A stretch of DNA of 64,000 nt, from the NCBI GenBank assembly GCA_018665815.1, contig JABJBP010000007.1, positions 857 to 64,856 on the forward strand. The letters run 5' to 3'. Shown here one piece after another: positions 15,515-38,459 of the stretch. Under the pieces are notes generated by a model. That model was not told where the DNA came from and made no database searches. It saw only the letters and a program-made list of their open reading frames with translations. Every line of letters begins with the position of its first letter. The stretch's first letter is position 1. The translations under genes and the position numbers were made by a program. Origin of the DNA: Rhodospirillaceae bacterium. Lineage in GTDB: Bacteria > Pseudomonadota > Alphaproteobacteria > Rhodospirillales > Casp-alpha2.

Positions 15515-15793
15515 ATGTTGGAAATCAAATGCCCTTGGTGTGGACCGCGCGCCCAGACCGAATTTTCCTACGCCGGCGACGCGACGTTGACTCGTCCCAG
15601 TTTAGATACCGCCACTGAGACAGAATGGTACGAACACGTCTATCTTCGCGGCAATCCGCGCGGTCCGCATGATGAGTTGTGGCATCACGCCGCCGGCTGC
15701 CGGCGTTTCGTGAAGGTGCGCCGCGACGTCACCACCCACGAAATCATCGCTACCGCCGGCCCTCACGAACACTTAGGCGGAGGCGGTAAATGA
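15515..15793 (+). CDS. soxD: Sarcosine oxidase, delta subunit
   Basis: 92 aa; CPWCGPR...HAAGCRRF zinc-ribbon-like SoxD signature. Confidence 0.9.
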   Translation: MLEIKCPWCGPRAQTEFSYAGDATLTRPSLDTATETEWYEHVYLRGNPRGPHDELWHHAAGCRRFVKVRRDVTTHEIIATAGPHEHLGGGGK

Positions 15794-22860: not shown

Positions 22861-23583
22861 TCAAATCACCAGCGTCAATCCGGAGACGGCCAGCATGGCC
22901 AGCACCAGACGACGGAAAAGTTGTTCGTTCAGGCGGCGGTAAAGCGCGATCCCGATGACCGTGCCGACAATGATCGCCGGCAAGCCCCACAAAAAACGCG
23001 TGGCGGTTTCCCAGGTCACCAAGCCGGCCCAGGCCATGGAGGCCAGCGAAAGAATATGCATGGCTAGAATGTAGGGTTGGGCGACGCCGCGTGCCTGTTG
23101 CTTGGGCCATCCGCGAAGCCCGCACCAGACAGCGGGAATGGCGCCCGACATCCCGGCCAGACCGCCCAGCACACCACCAATCCCGCCGGCGATGGCATCA
23201 AGAAATTTGCCGCCGGCCTTGAGAACCGGTGGATTGCGCATCGCTAATAGGCCCGCGCCATAGAGAAATAATAATGCGCCCACGGCCAGTCGGAAGGGCT
23301 CGGCTGCAATCTGTGAAAGAAGCCACGTCCCAATGGGCACCCCCAGCGCGCCCAAGCCTAAGAACGGTACCAGGAATTTGAAATCCAATTCCTTGTATAA
23401 TCGGGCCAGGGCGATGACATGGATGGTCAACCCGGTCATGACGATGAGGGGCGCAGCGACGGAGGGCTCGAAGACATGAAGCCACACGGCGGCGGCGGCC
23501 AGCGCATCACCAAACCCGGCCGCCCCCACGACAAAGGCGGCCAGAAAGGCGCCCAACACCAAGATGTAAACTTCAGGCGGCAT
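22861..23583 (-). CDS. TauE/SafE (TSUP) family anion permease, copy 1
   Basis: 240 aa polytopic protein. Gly-rich helices GAAGFGDA and GGIGGVLGG are typical of the family. Embedded inside the SDH-like/hydro-lyase operon. Confidence 0.75.
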   Translation of the reverse strand: MPPEVYILVLGAFLAAFVVGAAGFGDALAAAAVWLHVFEPSVAAPLIVMTGLTIHVIALARLYKELDFKFLVPFLGLGALGVPIGTWLLSQIAAEPFRLAVGALLFLYGAGLLAMRNPPVLKAGGKFLDAIAGGIGGVLGGLAGMSGAIPAVWCGLRGWPKQQARGVAQPYILAMHILSLASMAWAGLVTWETATRFLWGLPAIIVGTVIGIALYRRLNEQLFRRLVLAMLAVSGLTLVI

Positions 23584-23914
23584 TCAATAAATACACCAAT
23601 CCAATGAATAGGCTCACACCCGCGCTCAGCGCGACGATGGTCTTTTGGCCATCACGCCACGGCAGGAACTCAACGGCCAACAGGCGCAGCCCACCGGTCA
23701 TGTGGGCGGCTAGCAAAACAATCAGCACGGTCTCGGCGACCTTCACCATGGGCATCTCGGCCCAGACCAAAAAGCCATCAAAGACCGAGGCCTTTTTGAT
23801 CGCCAAATACAGCACCTGGAAATGCACCGGCAGAAATAGCGCCAGCGCGATGCCCGATACCCGGTGCACGACAAACGCCCAATAGTTGGGATGATCGCGG
23901 TGCGAGGTTTTCAT
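23573..23914 (-). CDS. Small hydrophobic anchor subunit (FrdC/SdhC-like)
   Basis: About 113 aa from ATG 23914, starting MKTSHRDHPNYWAFVVHRVSGIALALF, with three predicted TM helices. The start overlaps the previous stop (TGATG). Function assigned from position next to the Fe-S subunit. Confidence 0.55.
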   Translation of the reverse strand: MKTSHRDHPNYWAFVVHRVSGIALALFLPVHFQVLYLAIKKASVFDGFLVWAEMPMVKVAETVLIVLLAAHMTGGLRLLAVEFLPWRDGQKTIVALSAGVSLFIGLVYLLNAA

Positions 23915-24288
23915 CACGCGCCTCCCAACATGTAAAAACGGATCGCCACCTTGAGCCCCAAATAACCCAGCATGACGGCGGCCAGGAAACACAACAGATT
24001 GATCCGGCCCATGGAGAGCTTGGTCATCTCATTCAAGATGGCGCGCAAACCGATGGGCGCATGAACCGTGATGGCCAGCACGAAGACACCGTAGAACACC
24101 AACCAAACTTCACTGCCGCCAACGCGACCGACGATTTCGGCCGCCGATAGGCCGCCTTGGACGGCCATGATGATGGTCGCCAGATGAACGACAATACAAA
24201 GCGCGAGAACCATGGCGCTGACGCGCTGCGCCAACCAGAGCCGGGCTTCGGTTTGTGGGTTCGAGGGCACTGCCGTTTCCTCGATCAT
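23914..24288 (-). CDS. Small hydrophobic anchor subunit (FrdD/SdhD-like)
   Basis: 124 aa with three TM helices and conserved-looking His residues (VVHL, TVHAPIGLR). Shows a 4-nt overlap with the Fe-S subunit gene. Confidence 0.55.
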   Translation of the reverse strand: MIEETAVPSNPQTEARLWLAQRVSAMVLALCIVVHLATIIMAVQGGLSAAEIVGRVGGSEVWLVFYGVFVLAITVHAPIGLRAILNEMTKLSMGRINLLCFLAAVMLGYLGLKVAIRFYMLGGA

Positions 24289-25010
24289 TTCAGCTCCCCC
24301 TTCAGCGCGGCCATGGCCGTGGCCCGCTTCAACCCGGCAATGGACGCCGTCGGATTGAGATGCTTCGGGCAGCGCTCAACGCAGCCTTGTTGGGAATGAC
24401 ACGCCTGACAGCCGCCGGTTCCCGATACAGCCTTCAGGCGTGATAGTCGGCCCGTGTCCCGTTCGTCGTTGATCAAGGTCCAGGCCCGGTTCAATGCTGC
24501 CGGGCCTAAGTATTCCGTATTCCACGCGACGACATCGCAAGTCGCATAACAAACCCCGCAGCCGATGCACTCGATCCCGGCGCTGGCCTCCTGGCGGCGC
24601 TTGTCGTCGGGGGAAACTTTGGCGAAATCATCGTGGCGGGTCGAACCGCCAACAAATCGGGCTTCCGCCTTCGCCCATTTATCAAAGAAATCCGTCATGT
24701 CTACAGACAGGTCTTTAATGACCTTAAGGTTTCTGAGCGGCGCGACTTCAAGGCGACCGTCCTCAATTACCTTCGAGACGTGCGTGCGGCACGTCCAGCG
24801 CGGCTTTCCATTGACCGTCATGGCGCATGAGCCGCAAACGCCCACCCGGCACGCAAACCGGTAACTCAAGTTCGGGTCCAGGCGGCGCTGGATATAGGTG
24901 ATCACATCGAGCACGGTCTGGCTCTCCATGCGCGGCACTTCGTAGTCCTGATAGCGCCCGACCTCATCGTCGCCACGCCACACGGAAACCGTAAATGTTT
25001 CTTCGCTCAC
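24285..25010 (-). CDS. Succinate dehydrogenase / fumarate reductase-type iron-sulfur subunit
   Basis: 241 aa with three Cys clusters: CRVGVCGSCAMTVNG..C (2Fe-2S), CIGCGVCYATC, and CQACHSQQGCVERCP. Confidence 0.85.
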   Translation of the reverse strand: MSEETFTVSVWRGDDEVGRYQDYEVPRMESQTVLDVITYIQRRLDPNLSYRFACRVGVCGSCAMTVNGKPRWTCRTHVSKVIEDGRLEVAPLRNLKVIKDLSVDMTDFFDKWAKAEARFVGGSTRHDDFAKVSPDDKRRQEASAGIECIGCGVCYATCDVVAWNTEYLGPAALNRAWTLINDERDTGRLSRLKAVSGTGGCQACHSQQGCVERCPKHLNPTASIAGLKRATAMAALKGELK

Positions 25011-25838
25011 TTATCCGTCTCCTCTGTGGGGCGCGAATTCGATCACGCAGCCGAACCCCGCCGCCGGAGTAATCCAAATCGTTTCGGCGGTTTCCTCATA
25101 GGCAACGCGGTTTTCTTCCAGACACGTCCGGGCCGCTTCCATATCGCTCACGGCAACTCGAAAACCGGCATAACTCGATGCGATCTCGGCGCCGGCAAAG
25201 CGTGCGGCAAAAGCCTCTGGCGTAATCACGCTTGTCTTTCCGCCGATCGGGTCGAGATCAAGACCGTTCAGCAGTTTCGCCGGTGCGGCGCCGTCATCGG
25301 CAACCATAAACATTTCTGAAATCGTCACCGCGCCGTTGGCATGATTTTGATATTCCGGCTTCCAAAACAGGTCCGGGCGCCATTGCTGGCAGGTGAAGGC
25401 GACAGCGTCGGGCAATTCAGGCACTGTCGCGAAAGCCAAGGTGAAACCCACCGTCGCCGTACTGCCATCGGGCAACGCGGCGTCGCGAGAAAAATCGAAC
25501 ATTTCGTACGTATCGAGCCCGGCGGCTTTGAAGTCATCGCGGTCGGCGGCAGCGGTGGTGGTTTGCAGAACCATCATACTCATGCCCTGGCGGCGAGCCA
25601 GGAAGTCCCGGTTGTAAGCGCCGAAGCTGAAACTGCCCGGTTCGGCTTCGGGGACGTTTTCGGGTTCGGTGACCGAAAGCACTTCCAGGAAACAACCCTG
25701 CAACTGCGCCAGCCGGTTACCGGTCCCAAACGGGTGTTGGGCCGGCGGCGTCAGGGTGAAGCCGATGGCCTCATAAAACCGGGCGGCCTTGTCCAAGTCA
25801 TTCACCGCCAACACCAAATGATCGAAGGCACGGCTCAT
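25011..25838 (-). CDS. VOC (glyoxalase/dioxygenase) superfamily protein, two-domain
   Basis: 275 aa. Opens FDHLVLAVNDLDKAARFYEAIGF, typical of a VOC N-terminus. A second beta-alpha-beta-beta-beta repeat follows. Confidence 0.65.
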   Translation of the reverse strand: MSRAFDHLVLAVNDLDKAARFYEAIGFTLTPPAQHPFGTGNRLAQLQGCFLEVLSVTEPENVPEAEPGSFSFGAYNRDFLARRQGMSMMVLQTTTAAADRDDFKAAGLDTYEMFDFSRDAALPDGSTATVGFTLAFATVPELPDAVAFTCQQWRPDLFWKPEYQNHANGAVTISEMFMVADDGAAPAKLLNGLDLDPIGGKTSVITPEAFAARFAGAEIASSYAGFRVAVSDMEAARTCLEENRVAYEETAETIWITPAAGFGCVIEFAPHRGDG

Positions 25839-26254
25839 CCGGCAGCCTTTTCGATCGTCACTTGGCCACTGGCCGGATCGACATGCACGTGGTCGCCCGT
25901 TTGAATGGCCTGAGTGATGTCGCTCTCGAAGCGGTCAATCAATGGGAACGCGGCAAAAGCAGCGCCTTGGGCGATGATTGGGTTGGCGTAATTCAACAAC
26001 AATGCCGCCGGCGCCATCTTGCGCGATGCCATTTCGTGCAGCATCCAGGCCGTCGCCACGCCGCCCTTAGCGATGTTCAAGACCAGCATTTTGCCGACAT
26101 AATTCTCGCCGCAGAGCTTGTGCGCGGGCCTAGAAAACACACCTTTGATCCGGTCTAGGTCATAGCGCGCCGAGAAGTTGTCATCGGCGACCAGCGCAAT
26201 ACCGCTGGCCGCGGGGCCGATGCCGGCGTGGCCTTTCAAAATGACCGCGCTCAT
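25835..26254 (-). CDS. Aconitase X swivel-domain small subunit (DUF126)
   Basis: Reads MSAVILKGHAGIGPAASGIALVADDNFSARYDLD...GKMLVLNIAKGG. ATG 26254 overlaps the large-subunit stop (ATGA). Confidence 0.7.
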   Translation of the reverse strand: MSAVILKGHAGIGPAASGIALVADDNFSARYDLDRIKGVFSRPAHKLCGENYVGKMLVLNIAKGGVATAWMLHEMASRKMAPAALLLNYANPIIAQGAAFAAFPLIDRFESDITQAIQTGDHVHVDPASGQVTIEKAAG

Positions 26255-27501
26255 TTCACTACCCTCCCCGCCACGGCGGACGCAATACAACGCTCCATAT
26301 CGGCTAGCACGGGTTTATAGCCGTAGCCGCCGATGATGTTGGTGAGTTTCGCCGAGTTCGTCATCAATTGGGTCCAGCCGTTGGCCTCGCCCAGTTCGCG
26401 GGCGTGCATCTGATAGAAGCACACGCCTTCCAATACCACCGCGCCGGCATCCTCCATCGCCGCCGTCAGGCCCATTCGGTCCGACGCGTTTTTGTTTTCC
26501 GGATTGGTCGCAATCAGCACGGCGACATCCGGGTCAATCTGTTGGCCACGCAGCAGGTCAGCGCATTTCTGCATCTCTAAAAGCGACAATTGCGGGGCGG
26601 CGAACACCACCACATCCAAGGCGTCGTCATCACCACCGTACTCGCCTAGGAAGCTCTCAAAATCACCGGTACCGAACACAACTGGCTCGGGCGGCATGCC
26701 GTCGAACACAGTCTTGAGATCGGGCGCTTCCGGCGTGACGCCAATCATGTGGAACAATGCCGTTGACCCGAAACTCGCCAACGCCGCGCCGAAATGCTTC
26801 AGGTCATCGGAAGTCGGCGCCGGCCCCGTAACGCCGTCAATCACGGGCACCTGAAAATACGACCCCATCTGGCGCCCGATCATGCCACCGAGCGCCCCCC
26901 ACTCGGTCCAATTGCAGGGCCGGTGTTCAAGCACGAAGCGTGCAGTGCCGCGACGGTGTTGATCCAAATGAAAACCATAACGCGGCGTGCGGCCTGTCAT
27001 GGCGGCGGCCAGGGCCGATGGCCCGCCTTCATAGTTGGTCCTGGCACCCTGGACAGAATTTGAATAAATCACGACGCCCGTGTCGCCCATCGCCAGGTGC
27101 TCGCCCAGGACCGGCGGCATCATTGTTTGGTAGTTAATGCAGGTATCCGTCATCAATATGCCAAGCGCCCGAAACGCCGTGTCGGCGCGACGTTCCAAGG
27201 CAACATACGCCTCATCGTGGCTGATCCGCTCATAGGCGTTGAAGTCGGCACCGCGCGGATCGGTGATGGTGGGGATTACAACGCGTGTCTGATCAGGCGG
27301 CAGTGCGGCCAGTTCTTCCATAAAGGCAACGCCGGCTTCTCCCAGGCTTTCCGTGTCCGCCATAATGTGCGCTTGGGCGACCTCGACAAAATCCTCGGCA
27401 TCGAAAAAATCGCCGATCTCAATTTGCTGCGCCAGGGCACGGCGGCGGGCTTCCCCTTGCTCGCCGGCCAAAATCGCTTGTTCTGCATCCGTTAATCGCA
27501 T
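26251..27501 (-). CDS. Aconitase X catalytic large subunit (DUF521)
   Basis: 416 aa with MRLTDAEQAILAGEQGEARRRAL...VAQAHI, typical of an AcnX N-terminus. Paired with the DUF126 gene. Confidence 0.75.
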   Translation of the reverse strand: MRLTDAEQAILAGEQGEARRRALAQQIEIGDFFDAEDFVEVAQAHIMADTESLGEAGVAFMEELAALPPDQTRVVIPTITDPRGADFNAYERISHDEAYVALERRADTAFRALGILMTDTCINYQTMMPPVLGEHLAMGDTGVVIYSNSVQGARTNYEGGPSALAAAMTGRTPRYGFHLDQHRRGTARFVLEHRPCNWTEWGALGGMIGRQMGSYFQVPVIDGVTGPAPTSDDLKHFGAALASFGSTALFHMIGVTPEAPDLKTVFDGMPPEPVVFGTGDFESFLGEYGGDDDALDVVVFAAPQLSLLEMQKCADLLRGQQIDPDVAVLIATNPENKNASDRMGLTAAMEDAGAVVLEGVCFYQMHARELGEANGWTQLMTNSAKLTNIIGGYGYKPVLADMERCIASAVAGRVVK

Positions 27502-27507
27502 GGCCGC

Positions 27508-27729
27508 TTACTCATCATCTTGTTGAAAGTTCATCCGGCGCTGCTGTTCATCCAAGGCCAGAACCAGCAAGGCGAGGCGCGCCATATCCATATTCGACCA
27601 ACCTGCCGTCACCGTACCGTCTTTCCACAACACCGAAACGGCAACCGAATCGATATCATCTAAGTTCTCCAACCCGCTTTGAAAAATCTCAGCGGGGGTG
27701 GTGCCGTGTAGACTTGTGACCGTTCCCAT
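27508..27729 (-). CDS. Small acidic protein of unknown function (73 aa)
   Basis: ATG 27729 is preceded by GGAGGA. Wedged between the DUF3604-like and AcnX genes with gaps of 22 nt upstream and 6 nt downstream. Sequence is MGTVTSLHGTTPAEIFQSGLENLDDIDSVAVSVLWKDGTVTAGWSNMDMARLALLVLALDEQQRRMNFQQDDE. Confidence 0.5.
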   Translation of the reverse strand: MGTVTSLHGTTPAEIFQSGLENLDDIDSVAVSVLWKDGTVTAGWSNMDMARLALLVLALDEQQRRMNFQQDDE

Positions 27730-27751
27730 GGGGTGTTCCTCCGGGCGTTCC

Positions 27752-29995
27752 TCAGCGGAAAATGTATATGGGGCTCGACCAGATAAAGTGGCCGTCCTCC
27801 TGGGTAATACGGACATAAAGCGCGTTATCGCGATCACCGGCCAATTTCATTCGGCGTTCCAGCGTCAGCGCGCGGTGCGGGTTCTCATCGGGCAGGCGGA
27901 AAATCCGGATGCGCCGATCGATACCGCCGTTGGCAAAAATCATTTCATCGTAACCGATGTCCTTGATGGCGATTTCTTCTTTGATCAAATCCGTGTCGAT
28001 CTTCAAGGTTCCGGCGTCCGCGCCACCCAACCAGGCATCGAACCCACCGAACCCACCGGTCGTTAATGCCGCCCAATCGAGGCGGTTGTCACCGGTCTGC
28101 TCGAAGCGTTTGTCGATGTTGTAACGGTTGATCGGATCAAGGCGCTCAAAACTGTTGCCATCCAATTCCGCCGAGCCGTCCCAGACCGTCTCGCGGCCCC
28201 GGCCCCGATATTCCGATCCTTCCCAGAGCACCCGAATGCGCCGGCCGAGATCCGCCTCGGCGTAGGGCCGGAAAATTTCCTCAGTCTCCAAACCGTTGCG
28301 GATGTCGATGCGCTCGATGGGTGCGGAGGCATGGATATCGATCTTGAAGGTGACCTCGTCGTCGCCAGATTTCAGGATGTCCCCCATCATCGCCTCGTCG
28401 GCCATCTTGGAGGTGGCGTCACCCAGGTTCGGATCATCGGAAAACAGTTCCGCCGGATTGTCGAAGACGGCACGGGTGTCCAAAACGACGCGGTTGCCGG
28501 TGGTGCCGTAATGATGGCGTTTTTTAAGCGCCTCCATAATCCCGGCGCGGGTGAATTCAGGCGACAAGTTGCAGGTCAGGCCGCCGTAGGCGCCAAACTT
28601 GGTCGAGCCCGGATGAGACGCGCCGGGACGCCCCTTGTGGCCGTCGGAATTTGAGACGATGCCGACTCGGTAGCCCTGCTCGAAAGCATCGGTGATCAGC
28701 CATTCAAATGTTCCCCAGGCTGAGTGCACCTCAACGGCGCGCTCCAATCGGTCATCGTGGGCGATCTTGATATCGGCGTACCGCCCGCCGATATGCGCAA
28801 ACACCGTGCAATCCTCACCTTTCAAATCTTCGAACAGGTCGGCGGCGCAATTGGAATCGGTATCCACGTCCGACAAATCATCAACCAGCGCATGCGAGGA
28901 CCTGTGAATTTGGCGGCCTTCGTTCATGTGCAACACGTTGCGGTCACCGCCGAGCCCGGTATTGCCCGACCATTCCCAACCGGGGAAGACGATAAATTCA
29001 TCGTCCTTGGTGAACTCAGCGGAAAGCTCGTTGAGGTGCTCCCAAAATGCCGTGGTGATTTGGAAGTCATTGCCCTGATGAACACAAACATCAAGGAAGG
29101 CTTTGTCGCGGGCAAAATTATAGAAATCCCGCGCCGAGTTTGTGCCGATGGTTTCTTCCGACTGGCCGTGCAGATCACCCCAATAGGGCAGCAAATCGGC
29201 CTCTGCTGTCACCCGCATGGGATTCGATGTGCATACCGAATTGCCGTCGGCATCAACCAAATTAATGGTCAGATCACCCGGCGCACCGACGCTCAATCCA
29301 TCGACTATGGCTGAGAATTCACCGGAACGGAACGACACGGTATCGGGCAGGCCGTCGACGGGCGCGGACGCTTTCAAAACAAACGTGCTGTCGCATTGAT
29401 TGGACGGATTTCCCCAACGGTCTTCACCCTTTAGGCGCAATTTGAATTTCTGCCCGACGCGCTGCTGGGTCGGCATGATGGCTTTGTAATTCGCCGGCGG
29501 GCCGGGAATGATTGAAATGATCGGCTGTTCGGGCAGTTCCACGTAATTATACGTCGCGATGGCATCAACCAGCACCCGGAACTCGAAAGTGTCTTCGCAA
29601 AAGGTCTGGATGCGGATGCCCGGCGAGCCTTCACGGCGATCACCAAAACGAATGATGATTTGGTCATCGACCCTGAGAAAACCCCGCACGACCTTGATAT
29701 AAAGCGTTTTATCCCAGGGCCTGATATTTCGCTTCATGTCATATTCGATGTGCAAGATGGCACCGTTCGACGCTTCCACCGTCGTGTAGTTTGGCGCTTT
29801 CGGGTCGGTAAACTGCGGCCGACCCATATCCGAAGCGAACCGGTGCACCAGCTTGATCGACCCAGTATCGTCGATGCCGAAATAGCCGGCCGTATAAGTC
29901 ACGGTAAATTCCTGATAAGACCCGGCCTCAAAAGCGCCGGTGGGTGAGACCGTGGCGTGACCCATTTTTTCCGGCAGATATGTTGAATGCGGCAT
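27752..29995 (-). CDS. DUF3604-like (PHP-type metal-dependent hydrolase-like) protein, 747 aa
   Basis: The central YWGDLHGQSEE...VHQGNDFQ...GWEWSGNTGLGGDRNV...SNSDGHKGRPG pattern resembles the DUF3604/PHP metal-site layout as I remember it. GGAGAG RBS precedes the start. No closer assignment is possible by eye. Confidence 0.5.
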   Translation of the reverse strand: MPHSTYLPEKMGHATVSPTGAFEAGSYQEFTVTYTAGYFGIDDTGSIKLVHRFASDMGRPQFTDPKAPNYTTVEASNGAILHIEYDMKRNIRPWDKTLYIKVVRGFLRVDDQIIIRFGDRREGSPGIRIQTFCEDTFEFRVLVDAIATYNYVELPEQPIISIIPGPPANYKAIMPTQQRVGQKFKLRLKGEDRWGNPSNQCDSTFVLKASAPVDGLPDTVSFRSGEFSAIVDGLSVGAPGDLTINLVDADGNSVCTSNPMRVTAEADLLPYWGDLHGQSEETIGTNSARDFYNFARDKAFLDVCVHQGNDFQITTAFWEHLNELSAEFTKDDEFIVFPGWEWSGNTGLGGDRNVLHMNEGRQIHRSSHALVDDLSDVDTDSNCAADLFEDLKGEDCTVFAHIGGRYADIKIAHDDRLERAVEVHSAWGTFEWLITDAFEQGYRVGIVSNSDGHKGRPGASHPGSTKFGAYGGLTCNLSPEFTRAGIMEALKKRHHYGTTGNRVVLDTRAVFDNPAELFSDDPNLGDATSKMADEAMMGDILKSGDDEVTFKIDIHASAPIERIDIRNGLETEEIFRPYAEADLGRRIRVLWEGSEYRGRGRETVWDGSAELDGNSFERLDPINRYNIDKRFEQTGDNRLDWAALTTGGFGGFDAWLGGADAGTLKIDTDLIKEEIAIKDIGYDEMIFANGGIDRRIRIFRLPDENPHRALTLERRMKLAGDRDNALYVRITQEDGHFIWSSPIYIFR

Positions 29996-30010
29996 CGTGC
30001 TCTCCGTTCG

Positions 30011-30781
30011 TCAGGGCTTTTGCGGTAGCAGTTCAAGCCGCCGCGTGTCAGGGGGGATATAGACCACTTGATAGCTCAGTGGCGCGTCGCGAAAGCCGTA
30101 GCCTTGGATATGCAGGACGAGGCCGTTGGCCCCGATATCCAAACCCAGCATCCGTGCGATGTCATCAGGAAGTGCCTCTGCACCGACCTGTTCAACTATG
30201 CGCAATGTCGGCGCGTCGAAGCGCTGCCTGAGCAATGCGCGAATATTCATATTGTCGAGAGCGGCCGGCGGCTCGGACGCCAATTCGCTGAACCGCTGGC
30301 CGGTCAGGAACATCCGCGCCACGGCCTTGAACTCATGGTTCACATCGACATCGCGATCGATGCGAAGATGATTAGCCTCATGGCCCAAAAAATCCGTCCA
30401 TGCGCCACCCGTCGCGACTTCGGCTACCTTGGTCACCCGCGTAAACACCGGTAGGACGGTTTGCCCGTCATCGCCCAGAAAACGAAAATGCCACAGATCA
30501 TGCAGTTGGGACGGCGCGTCGGCAACGAAGGTCCCGCTGCCGTGTCGGCGGACAACGGCGCCACGATCGGCCAGATGCGAGAGCGCTTTTTGTACGGTAC
30601 CCAGACTGAACGGTAGGATCTGCGCCATCTCGGATTCGCCCGGCAATCGGTCGCCCGGCTTCAATTCACCCGTCTCAATGGCCTGCATGATGCCGTCCGA
30701 CAGCAACTGGTACTTCGGTGCGCGCACGCCCGTCGGGCGCCGCCCGTCGCTCAGCGTATTTGCCAGTCTGGCTAGTTCCAA
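30011..30781 (-). CDS. GntR-family regulator, HutC/UTRA type (paralog of 10143-10928); first gene of the long minus-strand operon
   Basis: HTH reads KYQLLSDGIMQAIETGELKPGDRLPGESEMAQILPFSLGTVQKALSHLADRGAV. TTG 30781 is preceded by GGGAGG-caata and gives 256 aa, matching the paralog. The track ORF extends to ATG 30880. Confidence 0.8.
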   Translation of the reverse strand: MELARLANTLSDGRRPTGVRAPKYQLLSDGIMQAIETGELKPGDRLPGESEMAQILPFSLGTVQKALSHLADRGAVVRRHGSGTFVADAPSQLHDLWHFRFLGDDGQTVLPVFTRVTKVAEVATGGAWTDFLGHEANHLRIDRDVDVNHEFKAVARMFLTGQRFSELASEPPAALDNMNIRALLRQRFDAPTLRIVEQVGAEALPDDIARMLGLDIGANGLVLHIQGYGFRDAPLSYQVVYIPPDTRRLELLPQKP

Positions 30782-30824
30782 TATTGCCTCCCGTCGCCGG
30801 TGTTCCACCGGATTCTTAAAAGAA

Positions 30825-30840
30825 CTATATAGCTCTATAG
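30825..30840. promoter_or_regulatory. CTATATAG-CTCTATAG tandem (first unit a perfect palindrome); candidate GntR operator in the divergent spacer
   Basis: Read directly. Related AACTATAT / ATATATAG elements occur at 10066-10073 and 10100-10107, upstream of the paralogous GntR. Confidence 0.3.
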
Positions 30841-30969
30841 ATTTTGGATCAAGGAACCAAATTTTCGCACCGTGGAACATCCGAGACGCCTGGTTTGCCG
30901 AGACCCGTCAGGAATGCTTCAATCTGGCGGCGATTTGGGGATCGATATTTTCAAGGGAGAGACCCGGCC

Positions 30970-32493
30970 ATGGGCATCACAGGCAGACCACAGTTCGAAA
31001 AACCACCATTGTTGGAGACCCGGCCGCCGCGTTGCCCGCCCTACTTCGATGTGACCAGCGTCGATCAGCTGTTGCCCTATTTGGAATTGGTTGCGCAGCG
31101 TCCTTACAACCAAGGCCTCCATGCCGCCTGGGACCTGCAGCCCGGTGAGCGGGTATTGCTCCGGGTCGACAATTGGCACGACGAATTGGTCGTCGAGGCA
31201 TGCAAAAAAATTCTCGAAAAATATGGCTGCAAGTATGAAATCAAGCACGCTGATCGCGGCCCCATTCCACAATGGGTCGGCGCCGACGAAGTCGACTATT
31301 ACTTGTACCGGACCAAGGAATTGGCCGAATGGATGGACACGTGGGGGGAACTCGCGAAAAGCGGTCAGTACGATAAAATTCTCTGGGGTTACGGCGGCCC
31401 GATCTTAGTTGACGACGATGTGAAAATTCAACGCATGCCCTTCATCACGCCTGAAATCCTGGCGTCCCCGGCGCATGCCATGCCTTATGAATTGCTGGAA
31501 GCCATCGACCAATGGACCTGGAATCGGGTGCGGTCGGCCAAGCGGGTGCGGATCACCGACCCGGAAGGCACGGATATCGAGTTTACCAACCACGCTGAAT
31601 ATTATGATGCGAAACGCGAGAACTATAATTGGGATTTGATCACCAAAACCTGGACCGATAACCCGCATTTCGCCAAGACCTACCTGCCTGGTCATGTCAC
31701 CGGTCGACCGTGGATTTTCCTGCCCGGCAAGGAAGACGGCAACGGCGTTATCGCCGGCACCACCAACCACATCGCGCCCGTCGACTGGACGCAATTGAAA
31801 ATCGAAAACTCGAAGATTACGGAAATCAACGAAGGCGGCGAGTTCGGCGATAAACTGCGCGCCCTGATGGCGGAATGCGCCGACATCCAGTATCCGGGCA
31901 TGCCGTCACCCGGCATCATGCACTGGTGGGAAGCTTCCATCGGCACCAATCCGCACATTCACCGGCCCAGAAAGGATTTCCCCTCAGGCCTGGTCAATTG
32001 CCTGTACGAGCGCGTGCGCTCGGGCGTCATCCATATTGGTTTCGGGACGATCATTTCGTCCATGGACGAGCGCCGTGCGGCGCGCGAAGGGCTAAAGGTC
32101 GGCCATTGGCATCTGCATCTCTATTTCCCGACATATATGGCGGAACGCGAAGGCGACAATGAGCCGGTGATTGAAGACGGCCGGCTCTTGGCCCTGGATG
32201 ACCCGGAAATCCGCAAACTGGCGGCGAAACACGGCGATCCTGATTTGTGGCTTCAGGAAAGCTGGATTCCGGCCGTGCCCGGCATCAATGTTGCCGGCGA
32301 ATACTGGAAACACTATGCCAATGACCCGTTGAAATGGGTCAAAATGGAACTCGACATCTGCCGCAATTGGCATCACTTGTTCATGCCCATGGTCGGCGGT
32401 GACACGCGGTTCTGTCATGACCATGCGGACTTCTGGTTGGGGGATTGCTGTGGCCATCCGGGCCTGCATACGCCGGACGACTGCTGCGGGTAA
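30970..32493 (+). CDS. M29 (aminopeptidase T / NicX)-like fold protein with Cys/His-rich C-terminal tail, 507 aa
   Basis: ATG 30970 is preceded by GGGAGAG. VRITDPEGTDIEF and EASIGTNPHI resemble M29-family motifs. The C-terminus reads RFCHDHADFWLGDCCGHPGLHTPDDCCG. Confidence 0.5.
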   Translation: MGITGRPQFEKPPLLETRPPRCPPYFDVTSVDQLLPYLELVAQRPYNQGLHAAWDLQPGERVLLRVDNWHDELVVEACKKILEKYGCKYEIKHADRGPIPQWVGADEVDYYLYRTKELAEWMDTWGELAKSGQYDKILWGYGGPILVDDDVKIQRMPFITPEILASPAHAMPYELLEAIDQWTWNRVRSAKRVRITDPEGTDIEFTNHAEYYDAKRENYNWDLITKTWTDNPHFAKTYLPGHVTGRPWIFLPGKEDGNGVIAGTTNHIAPVDWTQLKIENSKITEINEGGEFGDKLRALMAECADIQYPGMPSPGIMHWWEASIGTNPHIHRPRKDFPSGLVNCLYERVRSGVIHIGFGTIISSMDERRAAREGLKVGHWHLHLYFPTYMAEREGDNEPVIEDGRLLALDDPEIRKLAAKHGDPDLWLQESWIPAVPGINVAGEYWKHYANDPLKWVKMELDICRNWHHLFMPMVGGDTRFCHDHADFWLGDCCGHPGLHTPDDCCG

Positions 32494-33245
32494 CGTTCGG
32501 CTACAGCTTTGAAGTTCTCACAGCCGTCAGCATTGGCGTTGGCCTCGGCGGCTTTTCCAAAGGCGTCACGGGGATCGGTCTGCCAATAATTGCTATCGCC
32601 GTTATGATCCATTTCGTGGACCCACAAACCGCGTTCGTCACCATGGTTATCCCAAATTTGGTCACCAATATTTGGCAGTCCGCCACGTCTCATAACTGGA
32701 AAGAACCGTTCCTGAGGTTTTGGCCGATGATCGTGTGTTTCGTCATCAGTTTATTTATTGGTGCGGTGTTACTTGTCACGCTGGATGGCAGCACGCTCCT
32801 GACTATTTTGGGTGTATTTATGGCGGCATTCGCGGCAATGAACTTGATAAAACCCCGCGAACATCCCCTCTCGCCAACCGTCGAACGGTGGACTGGCCCC
32901 GTAGCTGGGACAGTGGGCGGACTCCTTGGCGGGCTGACCGCCATCTGGGGACCACCAATGCTGATGTTGTTTGTATTGTTGAAGTTGGACAAAGAGACAT
33001 GGATTCAGACAGTCGGCTTGATTTGGTTCATCGGATCCGTCCCGCTGGCTCTCGCATACTGGCACAATGGTTTATTGAACGCGCAAACTGCGCCGCTCTC
33101 GGCCTTTGCATGTATTGCAGGGATGATCGGCATTTGGCTCGGCGAGGTAATCCGGAGCAAGATTAATCAGGAAACCTTCCGCAAGCTCTTGTTGGTTTCG
33201 TTATTGCTCATCGGCCTAAATTTGGTTCGAGGGGCATTGTTTTAG
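32445..33245 (+). CDS. TauE/SafE (TSUP) family anion permease, copy 2
   Basis: Polytopic with the GVGLGGFSKGVTGIGLP and GTVGGLLGGLT family-type Gly motifs. The start is uncertain: TTG 32445 is the first in-frame candidate and overlaps the upstream gene by 49 nt. Confidence 0.7.
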   Translation: MLWPSGPAYAGRLLRVTFGYSFEVLTAVSIGVGLGGFSKGVTGIGLPIIAIAVMIHFVDPQTAFVTMVIPNLVTNIWQSATSHNWKEPFLRFWPMIVCFVISLFIGAVLLVTLDGSTLLTILGVFMAAFAAMNLIKPREHPLSPTVERWTGPVAGTVGGLLGGLTAIWGPPMLMLFVLLKLDKETWIQTVGLIWFIGSVPLALAYWHNGLLNAQTAPLSAFACIAGMIGIWLGEVIRSKINQETFRKLLLVSLLLIGLNLVRGALF

Positions 33246-34497
33246 TTACCGCTACGTTGGCCAATGACGCGCGCAGCACAAGACAGATAGGCAAGATCAA
33301 CAACACCATCACCGGCACCACACTGAGCGCTGCGTGAAGCCCCCATTGATCACTGAGCAGGCCATAAGCAAAAGGCGCCGCGGCACTGGCACCGATGCCC
33401 AACGTATAGAACAGCCCGAATGCCCGAGCCTGACTGTCGGCCTCGACGAAATCTCCCATGGTGCCGTAAAGCACCGATGAGGTGCCGTTGAGGACGACAC
33501 CCAAGAACGGCAGCATGATCAACGTTGGCACCAACGGCGCAAAAATTACCGCGACGATCAGCACCACGGTGCCGACTTCAGTGGCGACAACGGTGCGCAT
33601 GATGCCGACCCGTTCGGCAATGAACCCGCAGACCAATTTACCCGCCGCGCCGCCCCCCAGAACCAAGGCCAGGGCAAACCCCACGGTTTCGGTCTCCACG
33701 CCCTTGCCGATCAACAGAAACGGCAGAAAGGTGAGGAAACCAGTGCGCGAGCTTGTATCAATCATCGAGATCACGGAAAGCGCCGTGAAGCCGGTCCGGT
33801 CACGGATTCCCCATCCCCGCTTGCCTAAAACTTTCTTTTCTCCGGCCTTCCCCCTGGCCTTCCCCTCGGCCTCCCCCTCCGCCTTGGCACTACAGGCCGA
33901 CCGGCGTCCACCGGCGCCGGCGCGGCGCAACACGAAATAAATCGCCAATGCGGCGAACATACCGACGATGCCATGAGCGATGGTACCGGTGCGCCAGCCA
34001 AAAGCACCGGCGACCGCGGCAACGCTGACAGGCGCCACGATCTTGCCCAAATCACCGCCGAAGTTATAGGTCCCGAGCGCGGCCCGGCGCGGCCCGCCTT
34101 CATAGGCCTTGGAAATCAGTGCGGATGCCAAGGGATGCTGGGCGCTGGCGCCGAAGCCGCTCAAGCACAGGCAGACGGCCAACATGATAAAGCCTTCAGC
34201 GAACCCCAATAGCACGAACCCCAACCCGACCAGCACCGTTCCCAACACTAGAATAGGTCGCTCGCCTACTTTTTCGGCGACGAAACCGGCTGGAATTTGG
34301 AAGGCCGACATGGCGAGGCTGATAAATGTCTTCAGCAACCCGACTTGCGCGTGGGACAGCCCAAACTCGGCGGCCCATAGCGGCAATAGGATATAGACCG
34401 TATCGGTAAACCCGTCGTTGATGAAGTGCGCGAAGCCGCCGGCGCTCAACACTTTGCGACGCTTCGACAGCTCAGACATTGGGGCAGCATCTGTCAT
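33208..34497 (-). CDS. MFS transporter
   Basis: 429 aa with 12-TM layout and a long central loop. Divergent from a LysR gene. Confidence 0.85.
   Translation of the reverse strand: MTDAAPMSELSKRRKVLSAGGFAHFINDGFTDTVYILLPLWAAEFGLSHAQVGLLKTFISLAMSAFQIPAGFVAEKVGERPILVLGTVLVGLGFVLLGFAEGFIMLAVCLCLSGFGASAQHPLASALISKAYEGGPRRAALGTYNFGGDLGKIVAPVSVAAVAGAFGWRTGTIAHGIVGMFAALAIYFVLRRAGAGGRRSACSAKAEGEAEGKARGKAGEKKVLGKRGWGIRDRTGFTALSVISMIDTSSRTGFLTFLPFLLIGKGVETETVGFALALVLGGGAAGKLVCGFIAERVGIMRTVVATEVGTVVLIVAVIFAPLVPTLIMLPFLGVVLNGTSSVLYGTMGDFVEADSQARAFGLFYTLGIGASAAAPFAYGLLSDQWGLHAALSVVPVMVLLILPICLVLRASLANVAVTKTMPLEPNLGR
33844..33891. repeat. Imperfect 12-nt tandem repeat (3-4 units) inside the MFS central loop
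   Basis: Units are ggccttccccct / ggccttcccctc / ggcctccccctc / cgccttggcact. On the minus strand they encode SAKA-EGEA-EGKA-RGKA. Confidence 0.6.
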
Positions 34498-34568
34498 GGT
34501 TGCCGGAGATTAGGCGATACGTTTATATTGGTCTAATCGATTAATTAAAAATTTGATCGGTTTTACCT

Positions 34569-35441
34569 ATGTATGAAACATGGCTCAGATCATTTCACGC
34601 AGTCGCCCGCCACGGCGGCTTTACCGCCGCCGCCGGCGCGCTCAACCTCTCGCAGCCGACAATAACTGAGCAGGTAAAGTCTCTAGAAGGAAAATTCGGC
34701 GTCGAGTTATTTCATCGGCGCGGACGTACGGTGCGCCTAAGCGGCCCCGGCGCTGCGCTCTATGAAATCACCCAGGGCGTTGCCGGCCATATGGAAGAGG
34801 CGCTCCGATTCCTTGAAGTTGCCGGCGAAACCCCGGCCGGCCGGTTCGCCATCGGCAGCGTAAACCCCTATTACATCATGGAACCGGTTAGAGCCTTCGG
34901 CGCGCAATATGGCAATGTCGATACAGTACTAAGTGTCGACCACCGCCGCGAGGTCATCCAAGGCCTGTTGGATTTCCGCCTCGACGTCGCATTGATCGGA
35001 CGACGCGACCCCGATCCGCGCATTACCAACACAATGCTGTGGCAAAAGCGTGTTCATATCCTTTTGCCTTTTGATCATCCTCTGGCGAAACGTAAATCGT
35101 TGAAAATGAGCGATCTGGACGGCCAACCCATGCTGCTGCGCGAAGAACGCTCGACGACCCGTTTGGCCTTCGAGAAAGCCGTGCGGCACGCTGGCATAAA
35201 AGTGCCGGCGGTCATGGAAATCGATAGCCGCGAGGCCATCCGCGAGGCGGTTGCGTTGGGCATCGGGTTCGGCCTGGCGACAGACGGCGAGGTTCTCCCC
35301 GAGACCCGTCTGTGTAGCCGCCCGGTCAGCGACGCTGAGATGCAGGTCGTTTTTCATGCCGCATGTTTGAAAAACCGAGCCAAGCGACCGCTGATTGACG
35401 CCTTTATCAAGATCGCCAAAAACCATACAGATGCAGCTTAA
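34569..35441 (+). CDS. LysR-family transcriptional regulator
   Basis: HTH reads FHAVARHGGFTAAAGALNLSQPTITEQVKSLE; 290 aa. Confidence 0.9.
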   Translation: MYETWLRSFHAVARHGGFTAAAGALNLSQPTITEQVKSLEGKFGVELFHRRGRTVRLSGPGAALYEITQGVAGHMEEALRFLEVAGETPAGRFAIGSVNPYYIMEPVRAFGAQYGNVDTVLSVDHRREVIQGLLDFRLDVALIGRRDPDPRITNTMLWQKRVHILLPFDHPLAKRKSLKMSDLDGQPMLLREERSTTRLAFEKAVRHAGIKVPAVMEIDSREAIREAVALGIGFGLATDGEVLPETRLCSRPVSDAEMQVVFHAACLKNRAKRPLIDAFIKIAKNHTDAA

Positions 35442-36424
35442 ATTTCCAACAACACCTTGCCCTTGGTGAGCCGCGCTTCGATCATTTCATGGGCGGCGCG
35501 CGCCTCGGCCAGAGGAAATGTCCGATCGATGTTAATCGACAATTCTCCATCCAGATACAAAGCGAATAAGTCATCCGCACGGCCGCGCCGTTCGTCTTGG
35601 GTTGTCATATAATCAGCCAAGTGCGGACGGGTGAAAAAGATCGAGCCCGCTTCGGCCAAATCCAGTGGATCCAACTGCCCGATGGGACCCGACGCATTGC
35701 CGTTGTTGGACACCACGCCCCGGCGCTTGGCGCATTTCATGCTGCCTTGGATGGTGTCTTTGCCAACCGAGTCATAGACCACATCGACGCCCTCACCACC
35801 CGTCAATTCAAGAACGACCTCGGCGAAATCGACATCGCGGTAAAGAATGGTTTCATCAGCGCCCCGCGCTCTAGCAATCTCTGCTTTCTCGGGGTTGCCG
35901 ACCGTCGTGTAAACCACGGCACCCTGCGCTTTCGCCAGCTGGATTAGGACCTGACCAAGCCCACCGGCACCAGCGTGGATGAGGCACGTGTCACCGGATG
36001 CCAAGGGAAACAACGAGTGCGACAAATAGTGCGCCGTGCAGCCCTGTAATTGCAGTGCCGTTGCGATATCCATCGGCACGCCGTCGGGCACCGGCACCAA
36101 TTTCCAGGCCGGCACCACGGCATATTCGGCGTAACTGCCAAGATCGATGCAATAGGCGACCGTTTCGCCAAGTGCCAGATCATCGACACCATCTCCCAAC
36201 GCCTCAACGTAACCGGCGCCCTCCATGCCGATGACCATGGGTGGCTTTTGCGCATAGGTATCTGAGCGTTTGAAGATACCGCCGCGCATATAGACATCGA
36301 TGAAGTTGATCCCGGCAAAGATTTGGCGCACCAAGGCCTCACCGGGCCCAGGTTCGGGCACCGCGATGTCGTCCAGTTGCAACTGGTCAGCGCCGCCGTA
36401 TTCCTGAACCCGTATGGCCTTCAT
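35438..36424 (-). CDS. Zn-independent MDR-family NAD(P)H:quinone oxidoreductase-like
   Basis: 328 aa with MKAIRVQEYGGADQLQL... and AGAGGLGQVLIQLAK. Last gene of the IclR-headed operon, with a 4-nt overlap. Confidence 0.8.
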   Translation of the reverse strand: MKAIRVQEYGGADQLQLDDIAVPEPGPGEALVRQIFAGINFIDVYMRGGIFKRSDTYAQKPPMVIGMEGAGYVEALGDGVDDLALGETVAYCIDLGSYAEYAVVPAWKLVPVPDGVPMDIATALQLQGCTAHYLSHSLFPLASGDTCLIHAGAGGLGQVLIQLAKAQGAVVYTTVGNPEKAEIARARGADETILYRDVDFAEVVLELTGGEGVDVVYDSVGKDTIQGSMKCAKRRGVVSNNGNASGPIGQLDPLDLAEAGSIFFTRPHLADYMTTQDERRGRADDLFALYLDGELSINIDRTFPLAEARAAHEMIEARLTKGKVLLEI

Positions 36425-37323
36425 GGTACGCCTCGGCTCGCCTGCTTGATCGCGCCGAAGGCTTCCTTCAGCGCATCACCAACATGCGACGGTGTCGCCA
36501 AGACGTTGACACCAGCGGCCTCAAGCGCCTTTTTCTTCGACGCATAGGTGCCCTTGTCGCCCATGACGATGGCGCCGGCATGCCCCATTTTCTTGCCCGG
36601 TGGTGCGGCGCCGCCAGCGATGAAGGCGACGACGGGCTTGTCCATGGTGGCGACATATTCGGCGGCATCTTCTTCCATGGAGCCGCCGATTTCACCAACC
36701 ATGACGATGACTTCCGTGCCTTCGAAGCTGTCCAGGGCCTCAATGGCGTCGCGGGTCGTCGTACCCAACACCGGATCACCACCGATGCCTAAGAAAGCCG
36801 TCTGGCCATAACCGGCGGAGACGATGTTTTGGCACATCAAGGTCGCCAGGCTTCCTGAACGCGACATCACGCCGACATTTCCTTTCTTGAAGATGCGATC
36901 ATTAAACACCGGCATGAAGCCTAAGAAGCACTCGTCAATCGTCGCCGAACCCGCTGTATTCGGTCCGATGACAGTGGTGCCGTGTTCCTTGGCGGCGGCC
37001 ATGAAATACATGACGTCCTGGACCGGAATGTGTTCGGTCAGACACACGACCGTCTTGGCCCCGGCCTCAATAGCGTCCATGGCCGCGGCCTTGACGCCTA
37101 AGGCCGGAATGAACATGACCGTGGCATCAAAACCACCGCCTTCCATGGCATCCTTGGCAGAGCCATAAACAGGCACGCCACAATGTTCCGTGCCAGCCTT
37201 TTTCGGGTTCACACCACCAACAATTTTGGTGCCGTAGGCCTGCATGTGCTCCGTCCAGAACGTGCCTTGCTTGCCGGTGATGCCCTGGACCAGGACGCGG
37301 TGTTCTCTTCTGACAATCTTCAT
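36421..37323 (-). CDS. ADP-forming acyl-CoA ligase alpha subunit (SucD-like)
   Basis: Reads VLVQGITGKQGTFWTEHMQAYGTKIVGGVNPKK, with phospho-His loop KKMGHAGAIV. ATG 37323 overlaps the beta-subunit stop (ATGA). Confidence 0.85.
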   Translation of the reverse strand: MKIVRREHRVLVQGITGKQGTFWTEHMQAYGTKIVGGVNPKKAGTEHCGVPVYGSAKDAMEGGGFDATVMFIPALGVKAAAMDAIEAGAKTVVCLTEHIPVQDVMYFMAAAKEHGTTVIGPNTAGSATIDECFLGFMPVFNDRIFKKGNVGVMSRSGSLATLMCQNIVSAGYGQTAFLGIGGDPVLGTTTRDAIEALDSFEGTEVIVMVGEIGGSMEEDAAEYVATMDKPVVAFIAGGAAPPGKKMGHAGAIVMGDKGTYASKKKALEAAGVNVLATPSHVGDALKEAFGAIKQASRGVP

Positions 37324-38456: not shown

Positions 38457-38459
38457 GAC

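Follow-up and report, generated by a model that had tools for sequence, protein, structure and literature searches.

A case for two independent catabolic modules, one around a PHP-type metallohydrolase and one around an M29/NicX-fold protein, in a marine Rhodospirillales lineage

Two probable modules back to back

This work concerns two large proteins encoded on a 64,000-nt stretch of contig JABJBP010000007.1, from a marine Rhodospirillales lineage. We call the whole stretch the window and count positions within it. The first protein, P747, has 747 aa and is encoded on the minus strand (27752-29995). The second, P507, has 507 aa and is encoded on the plus strand (30970-32493). A GntR regulator gene and a short intergenic region lie between the two genes, and a 73-aa open reading frame (ORF), orf73, follows P747. 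A sequence-only reading of this DNA had taken P747 and P507 for a functional divergent pair, with the regulator acting on both of its neighbours. We lean, with modest confidence, towards a different view, namely that these are two independent catabolic modules lying back to back in this one marine lineage. The gene structures, the family and fold assignments, the conservation, the linkage counts and the operator motif used in this argument are direct observations. The substrates and reactions of both modules are ones that we infer.

The argument for separation is comparative and uses 80 species-level loci around P747 and 85 loci around P507. P507 adjoins P747 in one of the 80, and P747 turns up in three of the 85 (L090, L093 and L100), all of them relatives 80-82% identical to the window. 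Locus L009, from the P747 survey, is a further case with a gap of 5 kb. The partner gene is thus absent in 79 of 80 P747 loci and in 82 of 85 P507 loci. The regulator tells the same story. The GntR gene and a 16-bp operator-like motif, CTATATAGCTCTATAG, accompany P747 in loci without P507, so we assign both to the P747 operon. Exact copies of the motif stand upstream of GntR in L022, L024 and L036, where P747 and succinate dehydrogenase (SDH)-like genes are present and P507 is not. P507 for its part is found elsewhere with its own FCD-type GntR or IclR regulator and with TRAP, TTT or TSUP transporters. These results speak against a functional pair and against a regulator shared by both flanking genes. 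The expectation that the linkage would be conserved across genomes survives in part: P747 keeps company with SDH-like genes (10 of 80 loci), fumarase-like genes (9 of 80) and AcnX (6 of 80), and it does not keep company with P507.

P747, a predicted PHP-type metallohydrolase

The P747 gene starts at an ATG after GGAGAG, 15 nt past the GntR stop. Its product passes the gathering score of Pfam DUF3604 (PF12228) with 32.0 bits against a cut-off of 20.4 (E 6e-8), yet it aligns to a small part of the model only. The alignment is limited to P747 residues 469-552, which correspond to model positions 376-457 of 591 (82 positions), and it lies outside the first catalytic motifs. Close homologues are all marked PF12228 in precomputed Pfam annotation and carry the RefSeq label "DUF3604 domain-containing protein"; the context tables call the match weak or faint. 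A literature search on the function of DUF3604 gave one incidental, irrelevant mention. The NCBIfam CehA/McbA domain (NF038032) matches residues 271-563 with 26.5 bits (E 4e-6), below its cut-off of 80. It is the sole characterised family that matches the core of P747, and a PHP-like, His-rich metal site appears to be common to both. Searches of the PDB with the single sequence and with a profile returned chance matches only.

The metal-binding pattern of PHP enzymes runs H-x-H, H, E, H, H, D-x-H. Among 69 P747 sequences reaching down to 53% identity, D274, H276, Q278, H306, D310, E341, H368, H401, H424, D451 and H453 are invariant. The first motif reads D274-x-H276-G-Q278 and the last D451-G-H453, so that Gln replaces the second His of the classical H-x-H. 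P747 would therefore carry a variant PHP metal site. CehA and McbA, which hydrolyse carbamate esters (carbaryl), have a PHP domain, and mutagenesis has found their histidines essential (PMC8292978). CehA has His313-x-His315 where P747 has H276-x-Q278. The two also differ in setting: CehA and McbA are transposon-borne pesticide hydrolases, whereas P747 is a conserved core gene in catabolic operons of marine bacteria.

The structural model adds little here. Only homologues at least 77% identical went into the AlphaFold input, and because of this the core is poorly modelled, with a predicted local distance difference test (pLDDT) score below 50 over residues 266-503. The flanks form beta-sandwich domains, which places the catalytic core at about residues 266-565 with a sandwich on either side. 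A Foldseek search with this model found only generic Ig-like sandwiches; with the core unmodelled, the fold search is uninformative. No hydrophobic stretch like a signal peptide is seen by eye at the N-terminus. Taken together, the motifs and family matches lead us to read P747 as a cytoplasmic PHP-type metallohydrolase with a marginal DUF3604 match. The sequence-only reading had called it DUF3604/PHP-related, and it was right on this: the DUF3604 score passes, if over part of the model, and the PHP-type residues are invariant. Its further statement that neither large protein belongs to a family with a known substrate agrees with our profile, PDB and literature searches.

The family is large. 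It comprises more than 7,800 database clusters, nearly all of exactly 747 aa, and the homologues come from metagenome-assembled genomes (MAGs) of marine Alpha- and Gammaproteobacteria, with some record titles suggesting an association with sponges. This puts P747 among the more abundant uncharacterised enzymes of these two groups. Nine Gammaproteobacteria MAG loci (L014-L021 and L030) hold a stand-alone P747 of about 75% identity, followed by a 237-aa protein, an adenylosuccinate-lyase-like protein and a cupin-like protein (read by eye); the neighbourhood has a housekeeping look and no catabolic partners.

The P747 operon

All the ORFs named in the sequence-only reading are present in our ORF listing. 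On the minus strand, from about 30784 down to 19614, they form a tightly packed run of twelve entries when the two-subunit hydro-lyase is taken as one. The order is GntR, P747, orf73, AcnX large, AcnX small, Glyoxalase_3, SDH-like B, D and C, TauE/TSUP, a class I fumarase-like hydro-lyase and an SdhA-like flavoprotein. We refer to this run as module 1.

Its first gene encodes a regulator. In the maximal ORF (30011-30880) the Pfam GntR winged helix-turn-helix (1.1e-15) and UTRA (9.6e-6) domains both score above their cut-offs, which makes it HutC-type. The real start is probably the TTG at 30784, after GGGAGG, because the GntR domain does not start until residue 61 of the maximal ORF, and the orthologues have 256 aa; the gene would then occupy 30011-30784. 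Such 256-aa orthologues sit directly upstream of P747 in L009, L022, L024, L036, L070 and L085. With this start the intergenic region measures about 185 bp, close to the 188-bp control region that had been proposed. Within it, at 30825-30840 and without an assigned strand, lies the near-palindrome CTATATAGCTCTATAG. It is the sole fully conserved block among four intergenic regions that are otherwise 59% identical, and it is found once in the window with none expected by chance. A weak -10-like hexamer of the minus strand overlaps with it; scans for promoters and terminators gave counts not above the shuffled expectation and so offer a weak hint only. HutC-subfamily GntR repressors with palindromic operators have the same winged helix-turn-helix plus UTRA build, and this one likewise leads the operon that it probably controls. 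The candidate operator here is near-palindromic, 16 bp long and conserved.

Behind P747 and orf73 come the two AcnX subunits. The large, catalytic subunit (26251-27501, minus) matches Pfam AcnX with 357 bits (1.5e-106) and scores 190 against a cut-off of 700 in the equivalog model, so it is an AcnX family member but not the orthologue of that model. The small, swivel subunit spans 25835-26290 (minus; AcnX_swivel_put, 1.4e-19), with the true start probably near 26251; its orthologue in L009 has 138 aa. The Glyoxalase_3 protein of the VOC superfamily (25011-25838, minus; Pfam 7.2e-30) follows, and its gene is kept directly after P747 in L024 and L036. The SDH-like subunits, all on the minus strand and identified by Pfam and NCBIfam, are the B iron-sulfur subunit (24285-25010) and the membrane anchors D (23914-24288) and C (23573-23992). 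A TauE/SafE (TSUP) membrane protein (22861-23583, minus; Pfam TauE 4.3e-28) is embedded in the SDH-like operon, as it also is in L022, L024 and L036. Next is the class I (Fe-S) fumarase/tartrate-dehydratase-like hydro-lyase, with its alpha part at 21973-22848 and beta part at 21347-21958 (minus; Pfam Fumerase and Fumerase_C, and NCBIfam). The last gene (19614-21350, minus) encodes an SdhA/FrdA-like flavoprotein recognised by Pfam. Its best NCBIfam match is TfrA with 478 bits (cut-off 718), sdhA_frdA_Gneg gives 397 (cut-off 567), and it falls under every SdhA/FrdA equivalog cut-off. We therefore read it as a paralogue, not the housekeeping enzyme. The order B-D-C...A with inserted genes is atypical for canonical succinate dehydrogenase or fumarate reductase.

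The partners of P747 recur at other loci in different orders. A HutC-type GntR is found in 19 of the 80, directly upstream of P747 in six and as operon leader in eight. Next come a NitT/TauT-type ABC permease (12 of 80), then an ABC ATPase, SDH-like genes and a TauD-family dioxygenase (10 each), fumarase-like hydro-lyase and ComA, a phosphosulfolactate synthase (E 5e-56) (9 each), AcnX and sulfatase (6 each), and TauE (3). A full operon is seen in L064, with the genes for AcnX large, AcnX small, GntR, ComA, a binding protein, an ATPase, two permeases, TauD, P747 and a sulfatase in this order. The link of SDH-like, fumarase-like and AcnX genes to P747 survives shuffling of gene order, as a comparison of L065, L070-L072, L076 and L086 with L022, L024 and L036 makes plain. 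It is also met in culture, where P747, a TTT transporter and the fumarase-like, SDH-like and AcnX genes all lie on one plasmid (NZ_CP081121) of Sulfitobacter sp. S190. In Agrobacterium vitis F2/5 the order is TauE, GntR, ABC transporter, P747. On a Chelativorans plasmid P747 has a phosphosulfolactate synthase gene in its vicinity, and two Pseudosulfitobacter plasmids pair P747 with a TTT transporter. In two Rhodospirillales loci, L087 and L088 (1866-4199 and 12394-13860), P747 and ComA occur with a 777-aa molybdopterin-oxidoreductase-like protein and a 488-aa fumarate-reductase/FAD_binding_2-like protein (both by eye), and these two stand in place of the SDH-like complex.

What module 1 may degrade

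The reading that we favour for module 1 is as follows. The HutC-type GntR would bind the 16-bp motif and repress its own operon until a pathway ligand appears. P747 would take the entry step on an anionic compound brought into the cell, by hydrolysing a bond of ester type: a phospho-, sulfo- or carbamoyl-ester, or an amide. The acid so released would be dehydrated or hydrated by the Fe-S hydro-lyases and then oxidised by the membrane-bound SDH paralogue. The neighbours ComA, TauD, sulfatase, TauE and the NitT/TauT-type ABC transporter point to an organosulfonate or sulfate ester as substrate, with export of sulfite, and this is our leading guess, a plausible one. The sequence-only reading had also proposed an upstream hydrolytic step that feeds dehydratase and SDH-like chemistry. 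For the 747-aa gene this is reasonable, because P747 is repeatedly linked to SDH-like, fumarase-like and AcnX genes in several orders. The operon partners would make P747 an entry route for an anionic, possibly sulfur-containing, component of marine dissolved organic matter.

Module 1 might instead have nothing to do with sulfur, which we hold to be a real if minority possibility. Its substrate would then be an ordinary di- or tricarboxylate (C4-C6), or else a derivative of a hydroxy or amino acid, of the tartrate, methylsuccinate or hydroxyproline kind, with P747 as an amidase or esterase and the TauE protein as the permease for this compound. Known AcnX enzymes are hydroxyproline or phosphomevalonate dehydratases (PMC5144071, PMC8184944), and the AcnX papers in our literature search go no further than roles in hydroxyproline and mevalonate metabolism. 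The class I hydro-lyase is similar to tartrate dehydratase and to fumarase, several cultured carriers pair P747 with TTT carboxylate transporters, and genes marking sulfur metabolism are absent from most P747 loci. On the other side, ComA, TauD, sulfatase and NitT/TauT-type ABC genes do recur in the P747 operon, L064 being one example, and similar neighbours stand on the Chelativorans and A. vitis plasmids. Four loci have TauE within the SDH-like operon. If the product were succinate itself, there would be no need for a dedicated SDH paralogue.

P507 has the M29/NicX fold

Sequence methods say very little about P507. Its gene starts at an ATG preceded by AGGGAGAG. The protein has no match in Pfam (E up to 0.01), NCBIfam or the PDB, where sequence and profile searches gave chance matches only. 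A Pfam scan of 54 aligned family sequences (E up to 10) and of 10 divergent superfamily members (E up to 0.1) returned nothing relevant, and the hidden Markov models of Peptidase_M29 and PF26233 match none of these 64 scanned members. The orthologous group, with members in Alphaproteobacteria, Bacillales and Actinobacteria, is strongly conserved (55-82% identity). When 1.84 billion representatives were searched with a profile, 515 clusters came up at E of 0.001 or less, which makes for a modest, wholly unannotated superfamily. Against plasmids, P507 found only Streptomyces fragments of about 25% identity.

The AlphaFold model is good (pLDDT 90.1, predicted template modelling (TM) score 0.92), and it places the protein. 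In Foldseek the 2,5-dihydroxypyridine 5,6-dioxygenase NicX/Hpo (7CN3, 7CUP; PF26233) is the best match, with E 1e-12, probability 1.0 and a target-normalised TM score of 0.60-0.62 at a sequence identity of 14%. The M29 peptidases PepS, AmpS and AmpT (4ICQ, 4ICR, 1ZJC, 2AYI) follow at E 1e-11 to 1e-9, again with probability 1.0. They have a two-domain fold like that of P507, with identities of 12-13% and target-normalised TM scores of 0.41-0.48 (AmpS 1ZJC, AmpT 2AYI, PepS 4ICQ). After these two groups the next PDB structure comes only at E 4e-3. We conclude from the model that P507 has the predicted M29/NicX fold, and the assignment holds for the fold only. The sequence-only reading had called the protein M29/NicX-like; on fold this stands, and on family membership it fails, with no Pfam match.

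Several residues are near-invariant across the divergent superfamily: the DPEGTD motif (D197-D202), H242, E321, H355 and H379. Within the orthologous group H381 and H383 are conserved as well. P507 is about 150 residues longer than NicX, with an extra C-terminal helical region and a tail, CHDHADFWLGDCCGHPGLHTPDDCCG (window 32380-32493, residues about 464-507), that is rich in Cys and His and follows the invariant C464 and H468. The form of the tail varies by clade: CCGH...DDCCG (CC...CC) here, a terminal "CH" in actinobacterial homologues, or a run of His. Another invariant residue, C22, sits in a PRCP motif. The tail and C22 suggest an additional metal site or a metal-delivery, metallochaperone-like element.

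The known enzymes of this fold use different ligand sets. The M29 catalytic motif EEHYHD consists of E250, E316, H345, Y352, H378 and D380 in LmAmpII (PMC7023490), and NicX binds Fe(II) through H265, S302, H318 and D320 (PMC7910607). By spacing, P507 has E255/D256, E321, H355, I362 (not Tyr), H379 and H381 (His, not Asp) at the M29 positions; its E321/H355/H379 resemble the M29 spacing E316/H345/H378, and its H-I-G-F-G is like the M29 H-x-A-x-G. The NicX set does not appear to be reproduced: at comparable spacing P507 has E321, H355, H379 and H381. One database source labels a P507 homologue "aminopeptidase T". Unlike in M29, the operon setting, a transporter together with catabolic enzymes, speaks for a small molecule as substrate and not for peptides. 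Hydrolysis and oxygenation cannot be told apart from the fold.

Directly behind P507 lies a gene that the sequence-only reading overlooked, a TauE/SafE (TSUP) permease (about 32490-33245, plus; Pfam TauE 8.9e-34). Because its probable start, a GTG at 32490, overlaps the P507 stop codon, the two genes are probably translationally coupled. The same TauE gene is directly downstream of P507 in six related loci. Further along, a block at 33208-39896 (MFS transporter, LysR, zinc-type alcohol dehydrogenase, succinyl-CoA-ligase-like alpha and beta, and a divergent aldehyde dehydrogenase) is syntenic beside P507-TauE in the window's lineage (L094, L098, L100, L115).

The surroundings of P507 elsewhere are of another kind. 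The 85 loci include 23 with a divergent FCD-type GntR, 15-17 with TRAP subunits, 15 with TctC, 11 with a phosphoenolpyruvate (PEP)-mutase/isocitrate lyase (ICL)-like gene directly upstream, 10 with a LeuC-like gene, 9 with a LeuD-like gene and 6 with TauE directly downstream. The operon in L003 (5842-11584; also in L004 and L096) holds GntR(FCD), a 293-aa PF26233 NicX-family protein, a 64-aa ORF, TRAP DctPQM and an 82%-identical P507 homologue. This operon thus contains two M29/NicX-fold proteins. In an hhalign comparison with the PF26233 neighbour protein, P507 reached 57% probability over about 140 N-terminal residues only, a weak match.

We propose that P507 and the TSUP permease make up module 2 (plus strand, 30970-33245), a unit of transporter plus enzyme. 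P507 would be a metal-dependent hydrolase most likely, and an oxygenase less likely, acting on a small imported carboxylate at a Glu/His-rich metal site formed by H242, E321, H355 and H379, usually with H381 and H383. Its association elsewhere with TRAP or TTT uptake, a LeuCD-like hydratase and an ICL/PEP-mutase-like lyase is what leads us to a small carboxylate.

That P507 is instead an Fe(II) ring-cleaving dioxygenase like NicX, working on an N-heterocyclic or aromatic carboxylate, we consider doubtful without dismissing it. NicX supplies the best structural matches, a PF26233 protein shares the L003 operon, and a His-rich site could bind Fe(II). The LeuCD-like hydratase and PEP-mutase/ICL-like lyase could moreover process a substituted maleate from ring opening. 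Yet neither P507 nor any of the 64 scanned family members matches PF26233, and E321/H355/H379/H381 lie closer to the M29 ligands E316, H345 and H378 than to the NicX set. The named neighbours of P507 include no genes of the nic/pic pathway. No N-formylmaleamate deformylase, maleamate amidase or maleate isomerase recurs among the named neighbours, most of the rarer clusters being unannotated and no aimed search having been made.

Two other identities were tried for P507 and rejected. A role in creatinine or guanidino metabolism was suggested by creatininase, creatinase, hydantoinase and DDAH neighbours, each in single loci; across the 85 loci none of them was recurrent. We also considered HomC, called a "predicted peptidase" in work on the homarine operon (PMC13236597), and set it aside because the hom operon, reported there from 11,755 genomes, mostly Gammaproteobacteria, is distributed unlike the small P507 family. 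The text of that paper names no family for HomC.

Are the two modules one system?

We can now return to the idea that P507 and P747 are a co-regulated divergent pair, sharing the GntR operator and acting in sequence on one imported compound that feeds the AcnX, fumarase-like and SDH-like steps. We think this unlikely. It is true that the two genes also diverge in L090, L093 and L100, and in a looser way in L009, that an invariant operator lies between the genes, that each module has a TauE-family gene and that both are transcribed in the same seawater metatranscriptomes. But only relatives with 80-85% identity to the window have this arrangement, the surveys and the regulators speak as set out at the start, and P507 homologues of 82% identity sit in the different NicX-like/TRAP operon described above. 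Since P507-TauE shares the intergenic region in this lineage, it may have been drawn into the GntR regulon there.

The independence of the two modules, and the roles that we give them, have to be weighed against a number of contrary points. In at least four independent contigs of the window's lineage a single intergenic region is common to P507 and the GntR/P747 operon, and within that lineage the two may be co-regulated. No marker genes are found in 33 of the 48 P747 loci of at least 15 kb, and many P747 genes have TTT, TRAP or branched-chain-type ABC transporters as neighbours or stand in a housekeeping setting, which makes the link to sulfur a partial one. The TauE/TSUP family of permeases is broad, so the presence of a member is no proof of sulfite export. 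The metal site of P747 is assigned from motifs alone because the catalytic core was not modelled, and that of P507 was mapped onto M29 and NicX by residue spacing, not by structural alignment. The substrates, finally, are deduced from sequence.

A narrower proposal is that P747 is a phosphosulfolactate-type phosphatase, a PHP-fold replacement for ComB that works with a ComA-like enzyme in the interconversion of sulfite plus PEP and sulfolactate. Most PHP enzymes that have been characterised are phosphoesterases, ComA is in or near the P747 operon in 9 of 80 loci and on one plasmid, and no ComB-like gene was noticed in those ComA/P747 operons, which were inspected as operons and not genome-wide. 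We nevertheless think it highly unlikely: about 70 of the 80 loci have no ComA nearby, the window has none, the first PHP motif, in its H-x-Q form, might make for a different metal site, and the nearest characterised relatives, CehA and McbA, cleave carbamate esters, not phosphoesters (PMC8292978).

The most far-reaching proposal, and to us a long shot, joins a new aerobic desulfonation route that copies the steps from succinate through fumarate to malate in module 1 with a new catalytic branch of the M29/NicX fold in P507: P747 would free a succinate-isosteric sulfonate (3-sulfopropionate, sulfosuccinate) from an ester or amide conjugate, the SDH paralogue would turn it into a sulfo-enoate, the fumarase-like enzyme or AcnX would hydrate this to a hydroxysulfonate, and sulfite would be lost and exported by TauE, while the P507 branch would be a family of at least 515 clusters at 50% identity with no Pfam model, a His-rich site and the Cys/His tail. 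Our literature search found no aerobic pathway for 3-sulfopropionate or sulfoacrylate.

It is our view that P747 and P507 are separate problems, to be studied apart. None of this is new in kind, for both enzymes have known folds and the operon logic is ordinary. P507 nonetheless forms a branch of its own within the M29/NicX fold, with what looks like an altered metal site, and no model library recognises it. It is an enzyme family without a Pfam or NCBIfam match, and because peptidases and a ring-cleaving dioxygenase share its fold, its chemistry cannot be guessed and could extend the repertoire of that fold. The marine enzyme P747 is very abundant, has what looks like a variant PHP site, and occurs in contexts that hint at organosulfur compounds. 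What has been gained is a set of candidate catalytic residues and a predicted regulator/operator pair usable for ligand fishing. Cultured carriers can also be named: Sulfitobacter sp. S190, Agrobacterium vitis F2/5, Pseudosulfitobacter spp., Flavimaribacter sediminis and Hwanghaeella grinnelliae.

orf73, a probable accessory gene of many operons

The 73-aa ORF (27508-27729, minus) starts at an ATG after GGAGGA, 22 nt past the P747 stop, and ends 6 nt before the AcnX start. The acidic character and GGAGGA ribosome-binding site given for it earlier are borne out, with 12 acidic residues against 4 basic ones. Homologues number 526, at lengths of 68-75 aa, and the ratio of nonsynonymous to synonymous changes (pN/pS) is 0.13-0.29 with synonymous sites saturated. 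orf73 is thus a genuine gene under purifying selection.

The suggestion that it links the DUF3604-like gene to AcnX did not survive. orf73 is present at the P747/AcnX junction in L009 and L090 and absent in L100, L022, L071 and L072. Most such junctions lack it; it is dispensable there and varies by lineage. It also occurs in unrelated operons, in the order RidA, orf73, GFA in one, and after three EamA genes near creatinase and aminotransferase genes in another. It is found in many unrelated operons and is not specific to this pathway; we take it for a small accessory protein. In L169-L174 (orf73 at 8001-8222 or 5283-5504) it is the last or a middle gene of its operon, and some copies lie beside transposases. 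orf73 has no match in Pfam, NCBIfam, PHROGs or PADLOC. Neither PHROGs nor PADLOC matched P507 or P747 either, so no phage or defence link is indicated for any of the three. A longer, 109-aa GTG ORF at 27508-27837 was rejected as an artefact, its extension being an alternative frame of the conserved P747 3' end; the same pseudo-peptide precedes unrelated genes downstream of P747 in other genomes.

Expression and organism

The window sequence is present in many seawater metagenomes with a word share of 82-96%. Both modules are transcribed in situ: four marine metatranscriptomes contain contigs at least 99% identical over most genes of both, P747 and P507 among them, and RNA contigs bridge GntR/P747 (29973-30240) and P507/TauE (32447-32610). 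Such contigs are a measure of presence only, with DNA carry-over possible. No contig in these four runs covers orf73.

The organism evidently dissimilates sulfonates, since it has a bona fide Xsc (947 bits against an equivalog cut-off of 676) together with Pta, alanine dehydrogenase and a MocR-type regulator. This sulfoacetaldehyde module lies at 969-6756 and comprises the MocR-type GntR/aminotransferase regulator (969-2456), alanine dehydrogenase (2611-3738), Xsc (3939-5717) and phosphate acetyltransferase (5833-6756). A TauD homologue is also encoded in the window.

Two further regions deserve mention. At 12869-19366 a PrpD/MmgE-like gene is followed by a heterotetrameric sarcosine-oxidase-like set that is convergent with the SdhA-like gene; the set includes a SoxB-like gene (14173-15501), one for a 999-aa SoxA-like protein (15790-18789) and a SoxG-like gene (18758-19366). 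The region 44689-47097 encodes a 501-aa protein without a Pfam match, though with a weak LipJ-like match at its C-terminus, and this gene adjoins those for a TauD/TfdA-family dioxygenase (46216-47097) and an alpha/beta hydrolase.

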